Shown here one piece after another: positions 13,946 through 50,011 of a stretch of DNA of 64,000 bases. How positions within the stretch are numbered: the stretch's first letter is position 1; each line of letters begins with the position of its first letter. The position numbers were made by a program, and so were the translations under genes. The DNA comes from Ignavibacteria bacterium (lineage in GTDB: Bacteria; Bacteroidota; Ignavibacteria; Ignavibacteriales; SURF-24), in the NCBI GenBank assembly GCA_025612245.1, contig JAAXKQ010000015.1:69362-133361 (forward strand), in the 5' to 3' direction. The notes beneath the pieces are model-generated. The model searched no databases. It was not told where the DNA came from and was given only the letters and a program-made list of their open reading frames with translations.

Positions 13946-13974
13946 TTGACATTTCGTGAAATTTCGATTAATAT
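13946..13974 (+). promoter_or_regulatory. sigma-70-type promoter (TTGACA-17-TAATAT) upstream of citrate synthase
   Basis: ttgaca tttcgtgaaatttcgat taatat, about 83 nt upstream of the gltA ATG. Confidence 0.4.
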
Positions 13975-14056: not shown

Positions 14057-15343
14057 ATGGATAATGCGAAATTAGTTCTCAATGGGAAGGAGTACCAGCT
14101 CCCAGTGACTGTCGGAACAGAGGGTGAGGTTGGAATTGACATTACGGCATTAAGGTCTAAGACCGGTGCAATTACGCTGGATTCAGGTTATGGCAACACG
14201 GGTTCTTGTGAGAGTTCAATTACTTTTATTGATGGTGAGAGAGGAATACTGCAGTACCGCGGTTACCCCATCGAGGAATTAGCCGCAAAAAGCAGTTTTC
14301 TTGAGGTTTCTTTTCTTTTAATATTCGGCCACCTGCCCACCAGGGAAGAGCTTGACAAGTTTACTTTTGACCTTACACACCACAGTCTGCTTAGAGAGGA
14401 TATGAAAAAATTCTACGAGGGCTATCCTCCCACGGCACATCCTATGGGTGTACTTTGCTCTATGGTTGTTTCCTTATCTGCCTATTATCCCGATACACAG
14501 GAAGAACGCTACAATAACATAATTCGTCTTCTGGCAAAGCTGAAAACAATTGCGGCTTTCTCGTACAAAAAATCTATCGGACAGCCCTACGTTTATCCGC
14601 GCAACAACATGAGCTTCGCGGCTGACCTGCTTCATATGATGTTTGCAGTCCCGGCCGAGGACTATGAGGTCCACCAGGAAGTTGCAGACGCCCTGGATCT
14701 GCTCTTAATCCTGCACGCCGACCACGAGCAGAACTGCAGCACCTCGACCGTCAGAATGGTCGGAAGCAGCGAGGCCAACATGTTTGCCACCATTGCCTCC
14801 GGCATTTGCGCCCTCTGGGGCAAACTGCACGGCGGAGCTAACCAGCACGTAATTGAAATGCTGCAGAGAATTCAAAACGAAGGCGGCGATTACAGGAAGT
14901 TTATTGATATGGCAAAGGACAAGAATTCCAGCTTCAAGCTGATGGGTTTCGGGCACAGGGTTTACAAAAATTTCGACCCCCGCGCTAAAATTCTCAAAGA
15001 AGCCGCCGATAAGGTATTAAATAAACTCGGGATCAAGGACCCGCTGCTCGAAATTGCAAAAAACCTCGAACGGGTGGCTCTTGAGGACAGCTACTTCATC
15101 GAACGCAAACTCTATCCGAACGTGGATTTCTACAGCGGCATCATTTACCGCGCCATGGGAATCCCCACGGAAATGTTCACCGTAATGTTTGCGCTTGGAA
15201 GGCTCCCCGGCTGGATAGCACAGTGGAAGGAAATGAGGGAGGATCCGGCTATGAGGATCTACCGCCCGCGCCAGATCTATACCGGCTGCACCGAACGATC
15301 CTACATCCCGATTGACGAACGCAGAACAGTTGAAGTAAAGTAA
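14057..15343 (+). CDS. gltA: citrate synthase
   Basis: GFGHRVYKNFDPRA and the catalytic His/Asp context. 428 aa. Confidence 0.95.
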   Translation: MDNAKLVLNGKEYQLPVTVGTEGEVGIDITALRSKTGAITLDSGYGNTGSCESSITFIDGERGILQYRGYPIEELAAKSSFLEVSFLLIFGHLPTREELDKFTFDLTHHSLLREDMKKFYEGYPPTAHPMGVLCSMVVSLSAYYPDTQEERYNNIIRLLAKLKTIAAFSYKKSIGQPYVYPRNNMSFAADLLHMMFAVPAEDYEVHQEVADALDLLLILHADHEQNCSTSTVRMVGSSEANMFATIASGICALWGKLHGGANQHVIEMLQRIQNEGGDYRKFIDMAKDKNSSFKLMGFGHRVYKNFDPRAKILKEAADKVLNKLGIKDPLLEIAKNLERVALEDSYFIERKLYPNVDFYSGIIYRAMGIPTEMFTVMFALGRLPGWIAQWKEMREDPAMRIYRPRQIYTGCTERSYIPIDERRTVEVK

Positions 15344-15367
15344 TATATATGTAACTTTTCCCCAAAA

Positions 15368-15405
15368 AAAGCCCGGACACGCACAAACTCCGGGCTTTCA
15401 CTTTT
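15368..15405 (+). terminator. rho-independent terminator of gltA
   Basis: aaagcccggacacgcacaaactccgggctttcacttttt. Confidence 0.6.
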
Positions 15406-15425
15406 TCCGGTACCCTTTAAGTGTG

Positions 15426-15680
15426 TTGACATTCTGGGCGCGGGAATCTATAATTTAGTATGATTATGCGAGAGACTCTGATTTCTCCGGAAGAAATATA
15501 ATTCCCGCGGAAATTTCTCTTTTGGGCTTTTGAACTATTAAGCGGTATGCAGCAAAGGAAAAAAGGATAAAAAATAATCATTCCTTATATAATTGATCGT
15601 GATAGCGGGGATAATGTCTGTGGAAAAGAAAGTCTGCTTACCGCTTAAAGCTCGGCATTATCCCCGCTATTTATTTTAAG
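15426..15680 (+). ncRNA. candidate small RNA or leader transcript with its own promoter and terminator
   Basis: Perfect TTGACA(15426-31)-17nt-TATAAT(15449-54). 13-codon ORF MIMRETLISPEEI. 10-bp pair 15541-50/15639-48 crossing a 15-bp pair 15602-16/15656-70, the latter followed by TTTATTTT. Confidence 0.35.
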
Positions 15681-15690
15681 ACATAGCTCT

Positions 15691-16011
15691 CTACTCGAAC
15701 TCCAGCAGAAGTTCTCCTTTTGCCACCCTCTCGCCTTTCGACTTCTTAACCGACTTTATCGTCCCGTCGAATGGCGCCTTGATGGTGTTTCTCATTTTCA
15801 TCGCTTCAAACACAAGTATGCTCTGATCCTGCTTTACTCGCTGCCCTTTGTTTACTGTTATATCCAGTATCACTCCGGGTATTACAGCGTATATCTTTTT
15901 CGGATCCCTGGGCGCATAGGCTTTCCTCTCGGCAAACTTGGGCGTCAGCTTTGTCATGTAAACCGTATCGTCTACAACTATTTTTTCTAGATCTTTATTG
16001 TTGTCGTTCAT
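15691..16011 (-). CDS. biotin carboxyl carrier / biotinyl-domain subunit of an acyl-CoA carboxyltransferase complex
   Basis: EAMKM biotinylation motif (VFEAMKMRNTIKAPFDG). 106 aa. Confidence 0.85.
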   Translation of the reverse strand: MNDNNKDLEKIVVDDTVYMTKLTPKFAERKAYAPRDPKKIYAVIPGVILDITVNKGQRVKQDQSILVFEAMKMRNTIKAPFDGTIKSVKKSKGERVAKGELLLEFE

Positions 16012-16012
16012 G

Positions 16013-17557
16013 TTAAAATGGAGGTATCCCGTGTTTTTTGTTGGGTCTGGTTTCTAATTTGTTAGCTGAAGCCTTCAGCGCATATATCAGCGCATCCCTG
16101 GTTTCATAAGGATTAATTACTGAATCAACGTGACCGTTTGAAGCTGCTACATATGGATTGGCAAACTTCTCCGTGTACTCCTGAACTTTCTGCTTTCTTA
16201 CCGTATCGGGATCTTTTGCAGCCGCAATTTCACCCCTGAAGATGATGTTTGCTGCGCCTTCAGGACCCATAACTGCAATTTCTGCCGTCGGCCATGCAAA
16301 GACGAAATCTGCTCCCAGGTGGCGTGAGCACATTGCAATGTAACCGCCGCCGTAGGCCTTGCGCAGTATGACGGTCAGTTTTGGAACCGTGGCTTCGCTG
16401 TAAGCATAAAGTATTTTTGCCCCATGACGGATAACACCTGCATGCTCCTGATCCACACCAGGCAGATAACCCGGCAGGTCAACTAGCGTAACAAGCGGAA
16501 TGTTAAAGGCGTCGCAGTAACGTATGAAACGTGCCGCCTTGTCCGAAGAATCCACGTCCAGTACGCCTGCTAAGACGAGCGGCTGATTGCCGATGATGCC
16601 AACAGTCTCACCGTTAAGCCTTGCAAACCCGATTACTATGTTTGCCGCCCACTTTTCCTGGATTTCCAGGAAGTCCGAATCGTCGCATATCGACTTTATG
16701 ACGTCGCGTATGTCGTATGGCTTGGTGGTCTCTGCAGGAATGATGCGCTCAACGTCAAACTGCGCGCGCGGCATCTTTGGAGTAACCAGTGGAGCTTTCT
16801 CTCTGTTGCTCCATGGAATAAACGACAGAAGACGCTTTATCTGCTCAAAGCATTCCATTTCGCTTTCTGCATAAAAGTGCGCGTTACCGGTAATTTCTGT
16901 CTGTACGCGTGCCCCGCCGAGGTCTTCCATGGAGATCTCTTCACCCAGCACGGTTTTAATTACTTCGGGACCCGTAATAAACATTTTGGAAATCTTATCC
17001 ACAACAAAAACAAAATCTGTGAGCGCGGGCGAATAAACGGCACCTCCTGCGCACGGGCCTAAAATAACCGAAATCTGGGGTACTATGCCGGAAGCCATCG
17101 TATTCCTGTAGAATATCTCTCCGTAACCTGCAAGTGAATTGACGCCTTCCTGAATGCGTGCCCCGCCTGAATCGTTGATTCCTATTAGAGGAATCCCCAT
17201 GCGCACGGCATGATCCATAACTTTTGTGATCTTTCTTGCATGCATAAGTCCAAGCGATCCGCCTGCAACCGTAAAATCCTGTGCAAATACGCTTACCGGA
17301 CGGTTGTGAACCGAGCCTATGCCGGTAATGACACCGTCTGCTGGGAGCTGCTTTTTGTCCATGCCGAATTCTTCGCACTTATGCTCTACAAAGAGATCAG
17401 TTTCATGGAAGCTGTTTGGATCGAGGAGGACTTTTAGTCTTTCACGGGCCGGCAATTTCCCCATCGCTACCTGCTTTTGGATAGCCTTGTCACCGCCGCC
17501 GGTACTTATCTTTTCTTTTCTTGTGAAGAGTTCAATAATCTTACTTTTTAACGACAC
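16013..17557 (-). CDS. acyl-CoA carboxylase carboxyltransferase subunit (methylmalonyl-CoA decarboxylase alpha / propionyl-CoA carboxylase beta family)
   Basis: 514 aa, two crotonase-fold CT domains. Strong similarity to the PccB/MmdA family by eye. Confidence 0.9.
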   Translation of the reverse strand: MSLKSKIIELFTRKEKISTGGGDKAIQKQVAMGKLPARERLKVLLDPNSFHETDLFVEHKCEEFGMDKKQLPADGVITGIGSVHNRPVSVFAQDFTVAGGSLGLMHARKITKVMDHAVRMGIPLIGINDSGGARIQEGVNSLAGYGEIFYRNTMASGIVPQISVILGPCAGGAVYSPALTDFVFVVDKISKMFITGPEVIKTVLGEEISMEDLGGARVQTEITGNAHFYAESEMECFEQIKRLLSFIPWSNREKAPLVTPKMPRAQFDVERIIPAETTKPYDIRDVIKSICDDSDFLEIQEKWAANIVIGFARLNGETVGIIGNQPLVLAGVLDVDSSDKAARFIRYCDAFNIPLVTLVDLPGYLPGVDQEHAGVIRHGAKILYAYSEATVPKLTVILRKAYGGGYIAMCSRHLGADFVFAWPTAEIAVMGPEGAANIIFRGEIAAAKDPDTVRKQKVQEYTEKFANPYVAASNGHVDSVINPYETRDALIYALKASANKLETRPNKKHGIPPF

Positions 17558-21155: not shown

Positions 21156-23831
21156 TTACTGGTGCAGGGGATTCTTCTTATCGGGATTGATCCCCAGCTC
21201 CTTTATTGCCTTTGCGACCACACCAGGCTTAATTTTCTTTTCGTTCGACAGAGCCATTAGGGTTGCCAGCACTATATATCTTGCATCCACTTCAAAGAAG
21301 TTGCGCAGCCCTTCCCTGTCCTCGCTTCTTCCAAAGCCGAAGGTGCCGAGTGTGTTCAAAGGCCGCGGCAGATATTTCGAGATTGAGTCGCCAAGTATCT
21401 GGACGTAATCCGAGGCCGCAATAAAAACACCTTCTTCTTTCTGCAGCATTTCGGTAACATAAGGCACTTTCTTCGGCTGATCCGGGTGCAGCAGGTTCCA
21501 CCTTGTTGCATCCATGGCGTCTATGTGCAGAAGCTTATAACTCGTAACACTCCATGCGTCGGCCGATACGTTGTATTTGTCCTCCAGTATTTCCCGGGCT
21601 TTCAGAACCTCATTCATTATTGCGCCGCTTCCGAAAAGGTGTGCCCTGGCTTTTGAATCTTTCTTGTCCGAAGCCTTGAAGCGGTACATGCCTTTAAGTA
21701 TGCCTTCCTTAACCCCTTCCGGCATTGGCGGCTGTGCGTAATTCTCGTTCATTACGGTTATATAATAGTATAGACTTTCGCCTTCTTCATACATTCTTCT
21801 TATTCCATCGCGTATAATAACCGCAATCTCATAGGCAAATGCCGGATCATAAGACATGCAGTTCGGTATCGTGTAGGAAAGCAGGTGGCTGTTGCCGTCC
21901 TGGTGCTGCAGGCCTTCACCGGCAAGCGTCGTACGCCCTGCGGTTCCTCCTATCATAAAGCCCTTGCACCTCATGTCCCCTGCCGCCCAGGTAAGGTCGC
22001 CTACTCTCTGGAAACCGAACATTGAATAATAAACAAAGAAGGGAATCATGTTTATTCCGTGCGTTGCATAGGCGGTAGCAGCGGTGATAAAGGAGGCCAT
22101 AGAGCCTGCCTCTGTTATTCCTTCCTCAAGGATCTGCCCGTCGACGGCTTCCTTATAATAAAGAAGGCTTGCCTTGTCAACCGGCTCATAAAGCTGTCCT
22201 GCATGTGAATAAATGCCTATCTGCCTGAAAAGCGCCTCCATGCCGAAGGTACGCGCTTCATCGGGAACAATAGGAACTATAAATTTGCCGAGGTCCTTAT
22301 CTTTTAATAGCTTGGCCAGTATCCTCACGAATACCATCGTAGTTGACGCCTCACGCCCTTCGGTGCCCGCATAGAATTCCTCGAAAAGCTCTTCCGGGGG
22401 AGTCTTAAGCGGTTTTGCCCTTACAACCCTCTTGGGCAGAAAGCCTCCCAGCTCCTTACGCCTTTCCTGTATGTACTTCATTTCAGGGCTGTCCTCGGGC
22501 GGCCTGTAGAACGGAGCCTCGGCTACCTGGTCATCCGATATCGGTATTCCAAAACGGGTGCGGAATATCCTGAGCTCATCCTCGTTTAATTTTTTCTGCT
22601 GATGCGTAATATTTTTTCCCTCTCCGGCCTCGCCAAGCCCGTAGCCCTTAATTGTTCTGGCAAGTATTACAGTCGGACAGCCCTTGTTTTCAACTGCGGC
22701 CTTGAAAGCGGCATAAACCTTTTCCGGATCGTGCCCGCCCAGGCGCATCTTTGCCACCTGCTCGTCGGAGAGATTCCTGACCATTTCCTTCAGTTCAGGG
22801 TACTTGCCCCAGAAATGATCGCGTATATAGTCGCCGCCTTCAACAGAGTACTTTTGGCTTTCGCCGTCAATCATTTCATTCATGCGCTTGATCAATAGCC
22901 CGCTTCTGTCCTTTTCCAGGAACGGATCCCAGTCGTCGCCCCATATTACTTTGATCACGTTCCAGCCCACACCCCTGAAGCTTGCTTCAAGTTCCTGCAC
23001 AATGTTGCCGTTACCCCTTACCGGGCCATCGAGCCTCTGAAGGTTGCAGTTGATGACGAAAATCAGGTTATCCAGCTTCTCCCTCGCCGCAAGCGATATG
23101 GCTCCGAGCGTCTCGGGCTCATCGGTCTCGCCGTCGCCCAGGAAAGCCCATACCTTTGTGCCGTTCATCTTCTTGAGCCCGCGGTCTTCCAGGTACCGGT
23201 TAAACCTCGCCTGGTAGATTGCCATTATGGGCCCAAGGCCCATGGACACGGTCGGGAACTCCCAGAAGTCGGGCATCAGCCAGGGATGAGGATACGAGGA
23301 AAGTCCTCCTCCCGGCCTCGTCTCGCGCCTGAAATTTTTCATTTTTTCTTCGGAAATTCTTCCTTCCAGAAACGCCCTGGCATAGATGCCTGGAGAGGCG
23401 TGCCCCTGGAAGAAAACCTGGTCGCCGTCTGTGTCACCGTCTTTACCCTTGAAGAAATGGTTAAAACCTATCTCGTAAAGCGTTGCGGCCGAAGCGTAGG
23501 TCGATATGTGTCCCCCTATGCCGCTGGATTCCCTGTTCGCCTTTACAACCATGGCCATGGCATTCCAGCGTATGAGACTTTTAATTCTTCTTTCAATTTC
23601 CCTGCTCCCCGGGAAAGGCGGCTGCTTGTCGTGAGGTATGGTGTTTATGTAAGGAGTGTTAGCCGTAAAAGGTATTTTTACATCGTGTTTTCTTGCGTAC
23701 AGCTGAAGGTCTGTCAGCAGTTCACGGACCCTCTCAGGCCCGCTATGATATAATACATAGTCCAAGGATTCCAGCCATTCCCTGGTTTCAATGGCGGCCA
23801 GATCCTTTTGCTGAGTATTGTTTCCGTCCAT
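21156..23831 (-). CDS. aceE: pyruvate dehydrogenase E1 component, homodimeric type
   Basis: 891 aa, ThDP-binding GDG...N motif (FLGDGETDEPE), AceE-like length and layout. Confidence 0.95.
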   Translation of the reverse strand: MDGNNTQQKDLAAIETREWLESLDYVLYHSGPERVRELLTDLQLYARKHDVKIPFTANTPYINTIPHDKQPPFPGSREIERRIKSLIRWNAMAMVVKANRESSGIGGHISTYASAATLYEIGFNHFFKGKDGDTDGDQVFFQGHASPGIYARAFLEGRISEEKMKNFRRETRPGGGLSSYPHPWLMPDFWEFPTVSMGLGPIMAIYQARFNRYLEDRGLKKMNGTKVWAFLGDGETDEPETLGAISLAAREKLDNLIFVINCNLQRLDGPVRGNGNIVQELEASFRGVGWNVIKVIWGDDWDPFLEKDRSGLLIKRMNEMIDGESQKYSVEGGDYIRDHFWGKYPELKEMVRNLSDEQVAKMRLGGHDPEKVYAAFKAAVENKGCPTVILARTIKGYGLGEAGEGKNITHQQKKLNEDELRIFRTRFGIPISDDQVAEAPFYRPPEDSPEMKYIQERRKELGGFLPKRVVRAKPLKTPPEELFEEFYAGTEGREASTTMVFVRILAKLLKDKDLGKFIVPIVPDEARTFGMEALFRQIGIYSHAGQLYEPVDKASLLYYKEAVDGQILEEGITEAGSMASFITAATAYATHGINMIPFFVYYSMFGFQRVGDLTWAAGDMRCKGFMIGGTAGRTTLAGEGLQHQDGNSHLLSYTIPNCMSYDPAFAYEIAVIIRDGIRRMYEEGESLYYYITVMNENYAQPPMPEGVKEGILKGMYRFKASDKKDSKARAHLFGSGAIMNEVLKAREILEDKYNVSADAWSVTSYKLLHIDAMDATRWNLLHPDQPKKVPYVTEMLQKEEGVFIAASDYVQILGDSISKYLPRPLNTLGTFGFGRSEDREGLRNFFEVDARYIVLATLMALSNEKKIKPGVVAKAIKELGINPDKKNPLHQ

Positions 23832-49938: not shown

Positions 49939-50011
49939 GCACCCTTAGCTCAGCTGGTAGAGCATCTGACTCTTAATCAGCAGGTCGCCGGTTCGAATCC
50001 GGCAGGGTGCA
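49939..50011 (+). tRNA. tRNA-Lys (anticodon CTT)
   Basis: Manual cloverleaf. Acceptor gcaccct/agggtgc, D-stem gctc/gagc, anticodon loop cuCUUaa, T-arm gccgg-ttcgaat-ccggc. CCA is not encoded. Confidence 0.9.

Follow-up and report, generated by a model that had tools for sequence, protein, structure and literature searches.

A candidate structured small RNA with a predicted pseudoknotted terminator hairpin downstream of citrate synthase in uncultured Ignavibacteria

Introduction

Citrate synthase (gltA) and a biotinyl-domain protein (the biotin-carrier protein, BCCP) are encoded convergently in a 64 000-nucleotide (nt) stretch of DNA from an uncultured member of the Ignavibacteria (contig JAAXKQ010000015.1; the whole stretch is referred to below as the window). 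Genes for a carboxyltransferase and for a lipoamide-dehydrogenase-type flavoprotein lie upstream of BCCP on the − strand, and gltA is followed by an intrinsic terminator, which forms the upstream boundary of the element considered here. Between this terminator and BCCP, sequence comparison predicts a discrete gene for a non-coding RNA, which is read from the + strand and has a promoter to itself, a 3′ hairpin resembling a terminator and two helices, termed I1 and I2, that interleave (Table 1). A small regulatory RNA had been suggested for this gap from the letters of the window alone (the original prediction), and the comparison of relatives now reveals a conserved promoter, a conserved core and two helices with compensatory changes, all on the + strand and devoid of coding potential. 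Our favoured interpretation, to which we assign a probability of roughly 0.55, is that the locus encodes an independently transcribed, structured small RNA (sRNA) of about 220 nt (15461–15677), the terminator hairpin of which is part of a pseudoknot and which most likely acts in trans.

New lineage-specific sRNA motifs are found routinely, and sRNA genes that run from a promoter to a terminator are themselves known. To our knowledge there is no cultured genetic model among the Ignavibacteria; searches of Rfam and of the literature returned no regulatory RNA described for this group, and nothing relevant to the present RNA was found in the literature. What is convincing here is a structured sRNA family of narrow distribution with an unusual pseudoknotted terminator core. 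A terminator loop of 35 nt that takes part in another helix, of 15–18 base pairs, is an architecture unusual for bacterial sRNAs and terminators, and if the pseudoknot modulates termination or binds a protein it would represent a new structural solution for riboregulation. The candidate is also well delimited, comprising a promoter, about 220 nt of RNA, a terminator, a fold supported by covariation and an unpaired motif, and could be traced in metatranscriptomes and tested in vitro.

Table 1. Features of the gltA–BCCP region. Positions are those of the window unless a relative is named.
Feature	Position	Strand	Remarks
Citrate synthase gltA	14057–15343	+	Pfam Citrate_synt, E 6e-138
gltA intrinsic terminator	15364–15407	+	Stem 15368–77 / 15389–98, A-run before, T-run after
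−35 hexamer TTGACA	15426–15431	+	12/12 promoter match together with the −10 hexamer
−10 hexamer TATAAT	15449–15454	+	17-nt spacer from the −35 hexamer
5′ domain, ~77 nt, fast-evolving	15461–15537	+	51–58% identity to close relatives
Segment GAGAGACUCUG	15472–82	+	Sole segment of the 5′ domain kept in close relatives
Helix I2, 5′ arm UUAAGCGGUAUGCAG	15538–15552	+	Inverted repeat and covariation
Loop L1, purine-rich part with AAGGA repeats	15553–15582	+	GGA motifs in all sub-clades, sequence variable
Loop L1, motif CUUAUAUAAUUGAUCGU, family consensus CUUAWAUAAUYGAUCGU	15584–15600	+	Most conserved unpaired segment, near-invariant in all sub-clades
Helix I1, 5′ arm (predicted terminator stem)	15601–15618	+	Inverted repeat and covariation
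Loop L2, purine-rich, 15 nt, within the I1 loop	15619–15633	+	Invariant in the window-type clade, variable between clades
Helix I2, 3′ arm, inside the I1 loop	15634–15648	+	Inverted repeat and covariation
Loop L3	15649–15653	+	5 nt in the window, 5–8 nt in relatives
Helix I1, 3′ arm (predicted terminator stem)	15654–15671	+	Inverted repeat and covariation
U-tract UUAUUUU, predicted RNA 3′ end	15671–15677	+	U-rich tail in most relatives, weak in L090
Biotinyl-domain protein (BCCP), 106 residues	15691–16011	−	Convergent with gltA
Carboxyltransferase	16013–17557	−	Upstream of BCCP on the − strand
CMD/AhpD-like protein (PF02627), 131–133 residues, between gltA and BCCP	L090:4856–5257, L092:4899–5300, L103:3803–4204, L095:4555–4950		

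Results

The family and its sub-clades

The nearest citrate synthase among the GTDB representative genomes is 73% identical to that of the window, and relatives were therefore reached through citrate synthase homologues and the contigs that carry them. An exact match to the flanking protein occurs on a 575-kb metagenome contig of the Joint Genome Institute (sample 3300038998), and source records assign the citrate synthase to the Ignavibacteria. The element was found at 13 loci, which represent ten distinct sequences in three sub-clades, and it always lies downstream of gltA. In the window-type sub-clade (the window/L081, L082–L085 and L087–L089; gltA 89–100% identical to that of the window) and in that of L102 (gltA 85% identical) the BCCP gene is convergent and no + strand gene follows the element. 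The third sub-clade (L090/L091, L092 and L103; gltA 86% identical) has a + strand gene for a 133-residue protein of the CMD family (PF02627), with a CxxC motif (KCRYCAYYH in the L092 translation), 90–140 nt past the hairpin; no CMD gene was found in the window by tblastn. The gltA–BCCP gap is devoid of the element in L093/L094 (gltA 83%), L104/L105 (84%) and L095/L096 (80%), and L095/L096 possess the CMD gene; the presence of the CMD gene and that of the RNA vary independently among relatives. A riboswitch or leader would be expected in the 5′ untranslated region (UTR) of a same-strand gene in most members; here such a gene, CMD, occurs only in L090/L091, L092 and L103, and the leader that the original prediction had offered as an alternative to an sRNA is not supported for the window, where no + strand gene follows.

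A covariance model (R1) was built from nine sequences and run over the window and 99 loci. It returned known members only, at 129–171 bits, with a single copy in the window; a match in L021 at 37 bits was rejected because it is an ordinary terminator of gltA preceded by an A-rich stretch. Searching GTDB genomes with gltA gave identities of at most 73% and no RNA. Two pattern scans of metagenome contigs from the Joint Genome Institute gave no matches and five matches, respectively, the five being chance matches without stem complementarity, and a pattern scan of viral contigs gave none. With the 4227 models of Rfam release 15 at gathering thresholds, only a tRNA at 49939–50011 passes in the window; the best score in a permissive scan of 15300–15750 was 20.7 bits, to a microRNA model with a threshold of 100, and scans of L087, L090, L092 and L102 gave no match in the RNA region. 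Judged by sequence similarity, the element is a new RNA family, so far encountered in only one clade of uncultured Ignavibacteria.

Two interleaved helices and a predicted terminator

The arms of the two long helices of the 3′ core alternate along the RNA in the interleaved order that had been recognized in the original prediction (I2 5′, I1 5′, I2 3′, I1 3′; Table 1). The stem of 15 base pairs with a T-tract noted there (15602–15616 / 15656–15670) is indeed perfect and extends to 17–18 pairs, which we call I1, before running into TTATTTT. The ten-pair repeat that was said to cross it is also present and is longer than had been described, forming the 15-position helix I2 with one U–U mismatch, but the coordinates of its left arm were off by three: the perfect ten-pair part lies at 15538–47 / 15639–48, and not with its left arm at 15541–50. 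The other sequence features had been described accurately. The family-wide alignment extends I2 from the 15 paired positions of the window to 18. When the 255-nt region was shuffled 300 times, its longest perfect inverted repeat mostly measured 7–8 nt and never more than 12 nt, as against the 15 nt observed.

The computed folding energies are −27.9 kcal/mol for I1 and −16.6 kcal/mol for I2. When successive prefixes of the RNA are folded, I2 is the minimum-energy helix once its 3′ arm has been made, and I1 forms when its own 3′ arm emerges. The helices are joined by loops of 49 nt (L1), 15 nt (L2) and 5 nt (L3), and the loop of I1 amounts to 35 nt (15619–15653). I1 and I2 have no nucleotides in common, and the structure predictions contain no overlapping alternative helix of the terminator/antiterminator kind. 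Since the two helices share no nucleotides, and since, on simple arithmetic, the loops appear long enough to let I2 stack on the I1 apex, we infer a true pseudoknot rather than two mutually exclusive folds, both of which had been envisaged at the outset. With its G+C-containing stem and the U-tract that follows, I1 is a predicted intrinsic terminator; the U-tract ends about 14 nt short of 15691, where the convergent biotin-carrier gene has its stop codon.

The pattern of the conserved L1 motif occurs once in the window. A GAUC core lies within this unpaired motif, at 15595–15600 and at homologous positions in relatives, and forms a self-complementary CGAUCG in L090, L092, L102 and L103; in principle it could mediate RNA dimerization or, in DNA, be a Dam-type GATC site.

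Conservation, covariation and strand

Between the window and L082, L085 and L087 the core of the RNA, from the 5′ arm of I2 to the 3′ arm of I1 (about 135 nt), is 94.8–96.3% identical. The corresponding values for gltA, BCCP and the carboxyltransferase in the same comparisons are 75–85% overall and 51–63% at third codon positions, so that the core is more strongly constrained than the proteins encoded next to it.

Both helices are supported by covariation. In an unbiased MAFFT alignment (A4), 92.7% of the cells of their 32 pairs are paired, compared with 35–48% when the partners are slid by 1–3 columns. Nine pairs show double-sided changes, a number reached in five of 500 shuffles, and the covariation score of 0.306 (versus 0.186) was reached in none of 500. 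In a manual structural alignment, in which the distal part of I2 was put in structural register and the pairs were counted directly, double-sided changes occur in seven of the 18 pairs of I2 and in four of the 18 pairs of I1. The distal helix of I2 exists as three sequences, all of which pair (GCAG/CUGC, (A)ACGACA/UGUCGUU and CGGCA/UGCCG); in I1, G–C is replaced by A–U at two positions and A–U by G–C at one. The element thus displays one hallmark of an H-type pseudoknot, namely interleaved helices that each carry compensatory substitutions (double-sided in 5–7 pairs of I2 and four of I1).

The substitutions are asymmetric with respect to strand, with 23 G–U cells against six A–C cells, and 92.7% of the cells are paired when the alignment is read as + strand RNA versus 86.8% when it is read as − strand RNA. 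This pattern of substitution reveals selection on the fold of the + strand, and both the promoter and the U-tract point the same way.

Promoter and 5′ domain

The promoter TTGACA-17-TATAAT, described as perfect and rare in the original prediction, matches at all 12 positions (15426–15454) and is the sole perfect match in 64 kb; in shuffled sequences with one mismatch allowed, 0.40 matches are expected on average. From the spacing, transcription is predicted to start at about 15460–15462. In an alignment of eight sequences from two of the three sub-clades (A2), TTGAC of the −35 hexamer is invariant (8/8) although the spacers diverge, and the −10 hexamer occupies the same place as TATAAT, TATTAT, TATACT or TATAAG. 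A σ70-type promoter with its hexamers 16–18 nt apart is accordingly predicted from the sequences of the family, except in L090, L092 and L102. Conservation of the promoter and of the paired regions in relatives, which had been named as a check on the original prediction, is therefore found in the −35 element and in the compensatory changes of both helices, the promoter of L102 being unclear.

The next-best promoter match in the window (TTGACA-17-TATAAG, 22152–22180, − strand, one mismatch) lies inside an 891-residue open reading frame (ORF; 21156–23831, − strand) and is most likely due to chance.

The 5′ domain between the transcription start and the core evolves rapidly (Table 1). In L082, L085 and L087 its 5′ end, CACGAU, would be able to pair with AUCGUG beside I1, and a shifted pairing is predicted instead in the window; we regard this pairing as weak evidence.

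Coding potential and a DNA palindrome

A leader peptide, a small protein or a type I toxin would be expected to leave an ORF conserved across the sub-clades, and none was found on either strand; the core is equally conserved at all three codon positions. The 13-codon ORF with which the transcript was proposed to begin (15460–15501) is present, but its ATG is lost in relatives, where GAGAGACUCUG is read in a different frame; in the window it starts at the predicted transcription start, without a ribosome-binding site. A 28-residue + strand ORF with a TTG start (15593–15679) is interrupted by a stop in L092, and its few substitutions, all non-synonymous, fall in the I2 arm. The − strand ORFs considered in the core were 54–73 residues long: the window has one of 54 residues (15417–15581), preceded by AAGGA, and one that is common to L082 and L087 is absent in L092 and, in the window, has neither a start codon nor an intact frame, the latter owing to a 1-nt indel in an A-run.

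The palindrome 15439–47 / 15501–09, which had been proposed as an operator, is present, but relatives have not kept it and repeats of at least 9 nt turn up in about 10% of shuffles; the operator reading was rejected on these grounds.

Discussion

Proposed mode of action

In the interpretation that we favour, the near-consensus σ70-type promoter would drive synthesis of the RNA. The 3′ arm of I2, which lies in the 35-nt loop of I1, would pair with a segment lying upstream of I1, at a distance of 50 nt, and thereby create the pseudoknot; during transcription I2 could form first and I1 would then close around it, so that both helices would coexist in the finished molecule. Transcription would stop at the U-tract, with the convergent biotin-carrier gene just beyond. 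In its mature form the RNA would then be a trans regulator, in which the CUUAWAUAAUYGAUCGU motif and/or the GGA-bearing purine-rich loop may contact an mRNA or a protein, while the pseudoknot could provide a rigid, nuclease-resistant scaffold. A stand-alone trans-acting RNA is favoured because the element is strongly constrained in the window-type sub-clade and in L102, where nothing lies downstream on its strand, and because the CMD gene and the RNA vary independently. The constant position between citrate synthase and the operon of a biotin-dependent carboxyltransferase, from which a metabolic riboregulator had originally been suggested, offers a starting hypothesis for putative targets; the searches for complementarity described below gave no link to metabolism.

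Stand-alone bacterial sRNAs with intrinsic terminators include the Hfq-type Spot 42 and RyhB and, in Firmicutes, RsaE/RoxS, which regulates genes of the tricarboxylic acid cycle. The present element resembles them in its σ70-type promoter, its intergenic location, its length of about 200 nt, its 3′ hairpin with a U-tract, a possible unpaired seed and its confinement to one lineage. It differs from them in that no similarity is detected in sequence or by covariance models, in that the 35-nt terminator loop is paired with an upstream segment, and in that the whole 135-nt core, and not just a seed, is constrained. H-type pseudoknots are found in frameshift signals, telomerase RNA, tmRNA and the SAM-II and preQ1-II riboswitches, where the stems are usually of 3–8 base pairs. 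The order of the arms is the same here (5′ arm A, 5′ arm B, 3′ arm A, 3′ arm B) and both stems are supported by covariation, but the stems are of 15–18 base pairs, the loops are of 49, 15 and 5 nt, and one stem doubles as a predicted terminator.

Two further classes of regulatory RNA were compared with the element. RNAs of the CsrB/RsmZ type carry many GGA motifs in hairpin loops and occur in genomes that encode CsrA. The present RNA contains about six GGA motifs within its 220 nt, most of which lie in L1 and L2, the purine-rich loops, rather than in hairpin loops of small size, and tblastn detected neither CsrA nor Hfq in the 64-kb window, the only visible part of the genome. 6S RNA is a long double-stranded rod with paired 5′ and 3′ ends and a central bubble; here the predicted folds keep the 5′ domain apart from the 3′ terminator hairpin and contain no end-to-end rod, and no 6S model matches.

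Several considerations weigh against an independent trans-acting sRNA. The transcript is predicted, as are its two ends and its termination at I1. Intrinsic terminators typically have loops of 3–8 nt; a loop of 35 nt, as in I1, is unusual in an efficient terminator, and I1 is not listed by a terminator scan with a loop limit of 3–8 nt. The promoter of L090 and L092 is TTGACT-15-TATAAG, with a spacer of 15 nt, and L102 has no clear consensus promoter. The covariation derives from only about four independent lineages, so that the number of independent events is small. Pairing of loop L1 with the start regions of gltA, carboxyltransferase, BCCP and CMD in eight loci gave z scores of −1.4 to +1.8, which is noise, and the conserved motif against the start regions of all window ORFs of at least 100 residues was unremarkable; a search of the window for the reverse complement of the motif returned only the motif itself and one site with three mismatches. 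Finally, the location of the CMD gene in L090, L092 and L103 would fit a cis-acting leader equally well.

Alternative explanations

This last point leads to the main rival, a cis-acting conditional terminator that is riboswitch-like or dependent on a protein or another RNA. The core would sense a signal and set the extent of read-through past I1, either into the CMD-family gene or, in the window, antisense into the biotin-carrier/carboxyltransferase operon, the convergent stop codon being so near that any read-through would be antisense. We regard this explanation as unlikely, although it deserves to be taken seriously. Besides the same-strand CMD gene of L090/L091, L092 and L103, it draws on L090, in which no convincing separate CMD promoter is seen and in which the U-tract is weakest just where a gene follows; in L092, on the other hand, a candidate promoter lies between the RNA and CMD, and L095/L096 have CMD without the RNA. 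The terminator loop is unusual, and with the 3′ arm of I2 inside it and I2 the first helix to form, the layout could influence folding of the terminator. However, the fact that I1 and I2 share no nucleotides means that there can be no classical terminator/antiterminator competition between them. Moreover, helices of 15–18 base pairs are unlike known aptamers, no Rfam riboswitch model matches, and conservation of the RNA is strongest in the two sub-clades without a downstream sense gene.

Riboswitch-controlled antisense RNAs and riboswitch-containing sRNAs are known, for example the B12-controlled AspocR and Rli55/EutX. The present element shares with such riboswitch and attenuator leaders a pseudoknotted element that directly precedes a terminator and is integrated with it, a same-strand gene in one sub-clade and, in the window, read-through that would be antisense to a convergent operon. 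It departs from them in its non-overlapping and very long helices, in its persistence where no gene follows and in matching no known aptamer. A more specific proposal, which we consider doubtful, is that I2 in the terminator loop responds to a metabolite or protein of central carbon or redox metabolism and thereby chooses between a short stable sRNA and read-through, which would either activate the CMD/AhpD-like gene, in genomes that have it, or silence the convergent carboxylase operon by antisense transcription. If true, the element would be a dual-output riboregulator with an undescribed aptamer class.

Improbable, too, is a role of the RNA in convergent transcription, as a cis-antisense partner or an insulator. 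In this reading the mRNA of the carboxyltransferase/BCCP operon would cross the RNA gene as far as the bidirectional gltA terminator, the sRNA would pair perfectly with its 3′ UTR and affect its processing or stability, and I1 might double as a barrier between converging polymerases. In the window the operon lacks a terminator of its own ahead of 15671, and no U-tract follows I1 on the − strand, so that a role of the element towards the 3′ end of the operon is possible. The distance between I1 and the stop codon of BCCP is only about 20 nt in the window and in L102, and the gltA terminator, which is flanked by an A-run and a T-run, could stop − strand transcripts; in L090, where the CMD gene intervenes, a separate − strand terminator follows BCCP. 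Yet this layout is not conserved, as CMD parts the RNA from BCCP in L090, L092 and L103. Plain pairing, furthermore, neither needs nor explains a conserved pseudoknot with compensatory changes, and the wobble pattern is that of selection on the + strand fold. GadY, a cis-encoded antisense sRNA at the 3′ end of convergent genes that acts on the processing or stability of gadX, provides a precedent: the present RNA is likewise encoded on the strand opposite a convergent operon without an obvious terminator of its own, and directly adjoins the 3′ end of that operon. Unlike the case of GadY, the arrangement is not conserved in the CMD-bearing sub-clade, the intramolecular fold is unneeded for antisense action and the overlap with the operon transcript is only putative.

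An element that acts as DNA, such as a protein-binding site, a recombination site or the remnant of a mobile element, is very improbable: the inverted repeats are also DNA palindromes and some relatives have palindromic or tandem repeat insertions just upstream, but the substitutions are strand-asymmetric, tolerating G–U and mostly not A–C, the promoter and U-tract point the same way, and the element is single-copy and syntenic, with no adjoining transposase or integrase in the window. Least credible of all is a small-protein gene or leader-peptide attenuator based on the ORFs described above (the 13-codon ORF, the 28-residue + strand ORF or the − strand ORFs of 54–73 residues), which exist but are contradicted in other members by a lost ATG, a stop, a missing start and a frameshift.

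Other features of the locus and its relatives

To judge from its flanking A-run and T-run, the gltA terminator looks bidirectional, and it could also stop − strand carboxyltransferase/BCCP transcripts once these have passed the sRNA gene. An equivalent hairpin follows gltA in the relatives.

Three relatives (L085:4380–4650; L082:4375–4440; L083 likewise) have insertions between the gltA terminator and the sRNA promoter, which are absent from the window. They consist of tandem units of about 15 nt, AATAGCCACGRCCTG (at least seven copies in L085), together with GCCACG...CGTGGC palindromes, and resemble repeats of the repetitive extragenic palindromic or miniature inverted-repeat transposable element type; in L085 the gene caller had placed a 72-residue ORF across the tandem-repeat insertion. 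Mobile and defence genes likewise occur near the locus in relatives and not in the window, namely an IS200-type Y1 transposase (L082:7150–7287) and AbiEi/AbiEii toxin–antitoxin genes (L093:441–1253 and L094:128–424).

Near-identical citrate synthases (85–91%; P0003 and P0007–P0011) are labelled as Acidobacteriota, Syntrophomonadaceae, Clostridiales, Bacillota or Syntrophothermus in their source records. The contigs of P0007–P0011 share synteny with the Ignavibacteria contigs, and all but P0010 come from one metagenome-assembled genome project; the discordant labels of P0003 and P0007–P0011 are probably binning or taxonomy errors in those records.

Upstream of gltA, a TTGACA-17-TAATAT site at 13946–13974 of the window matches the promoter consensus at ten of 12 positions, which suggests that this lineage of Ignavibacteria uses −35/−10 promoters like those of Escherichia coli rather than the −33/−7 promoters of the Bacteroidetes type.

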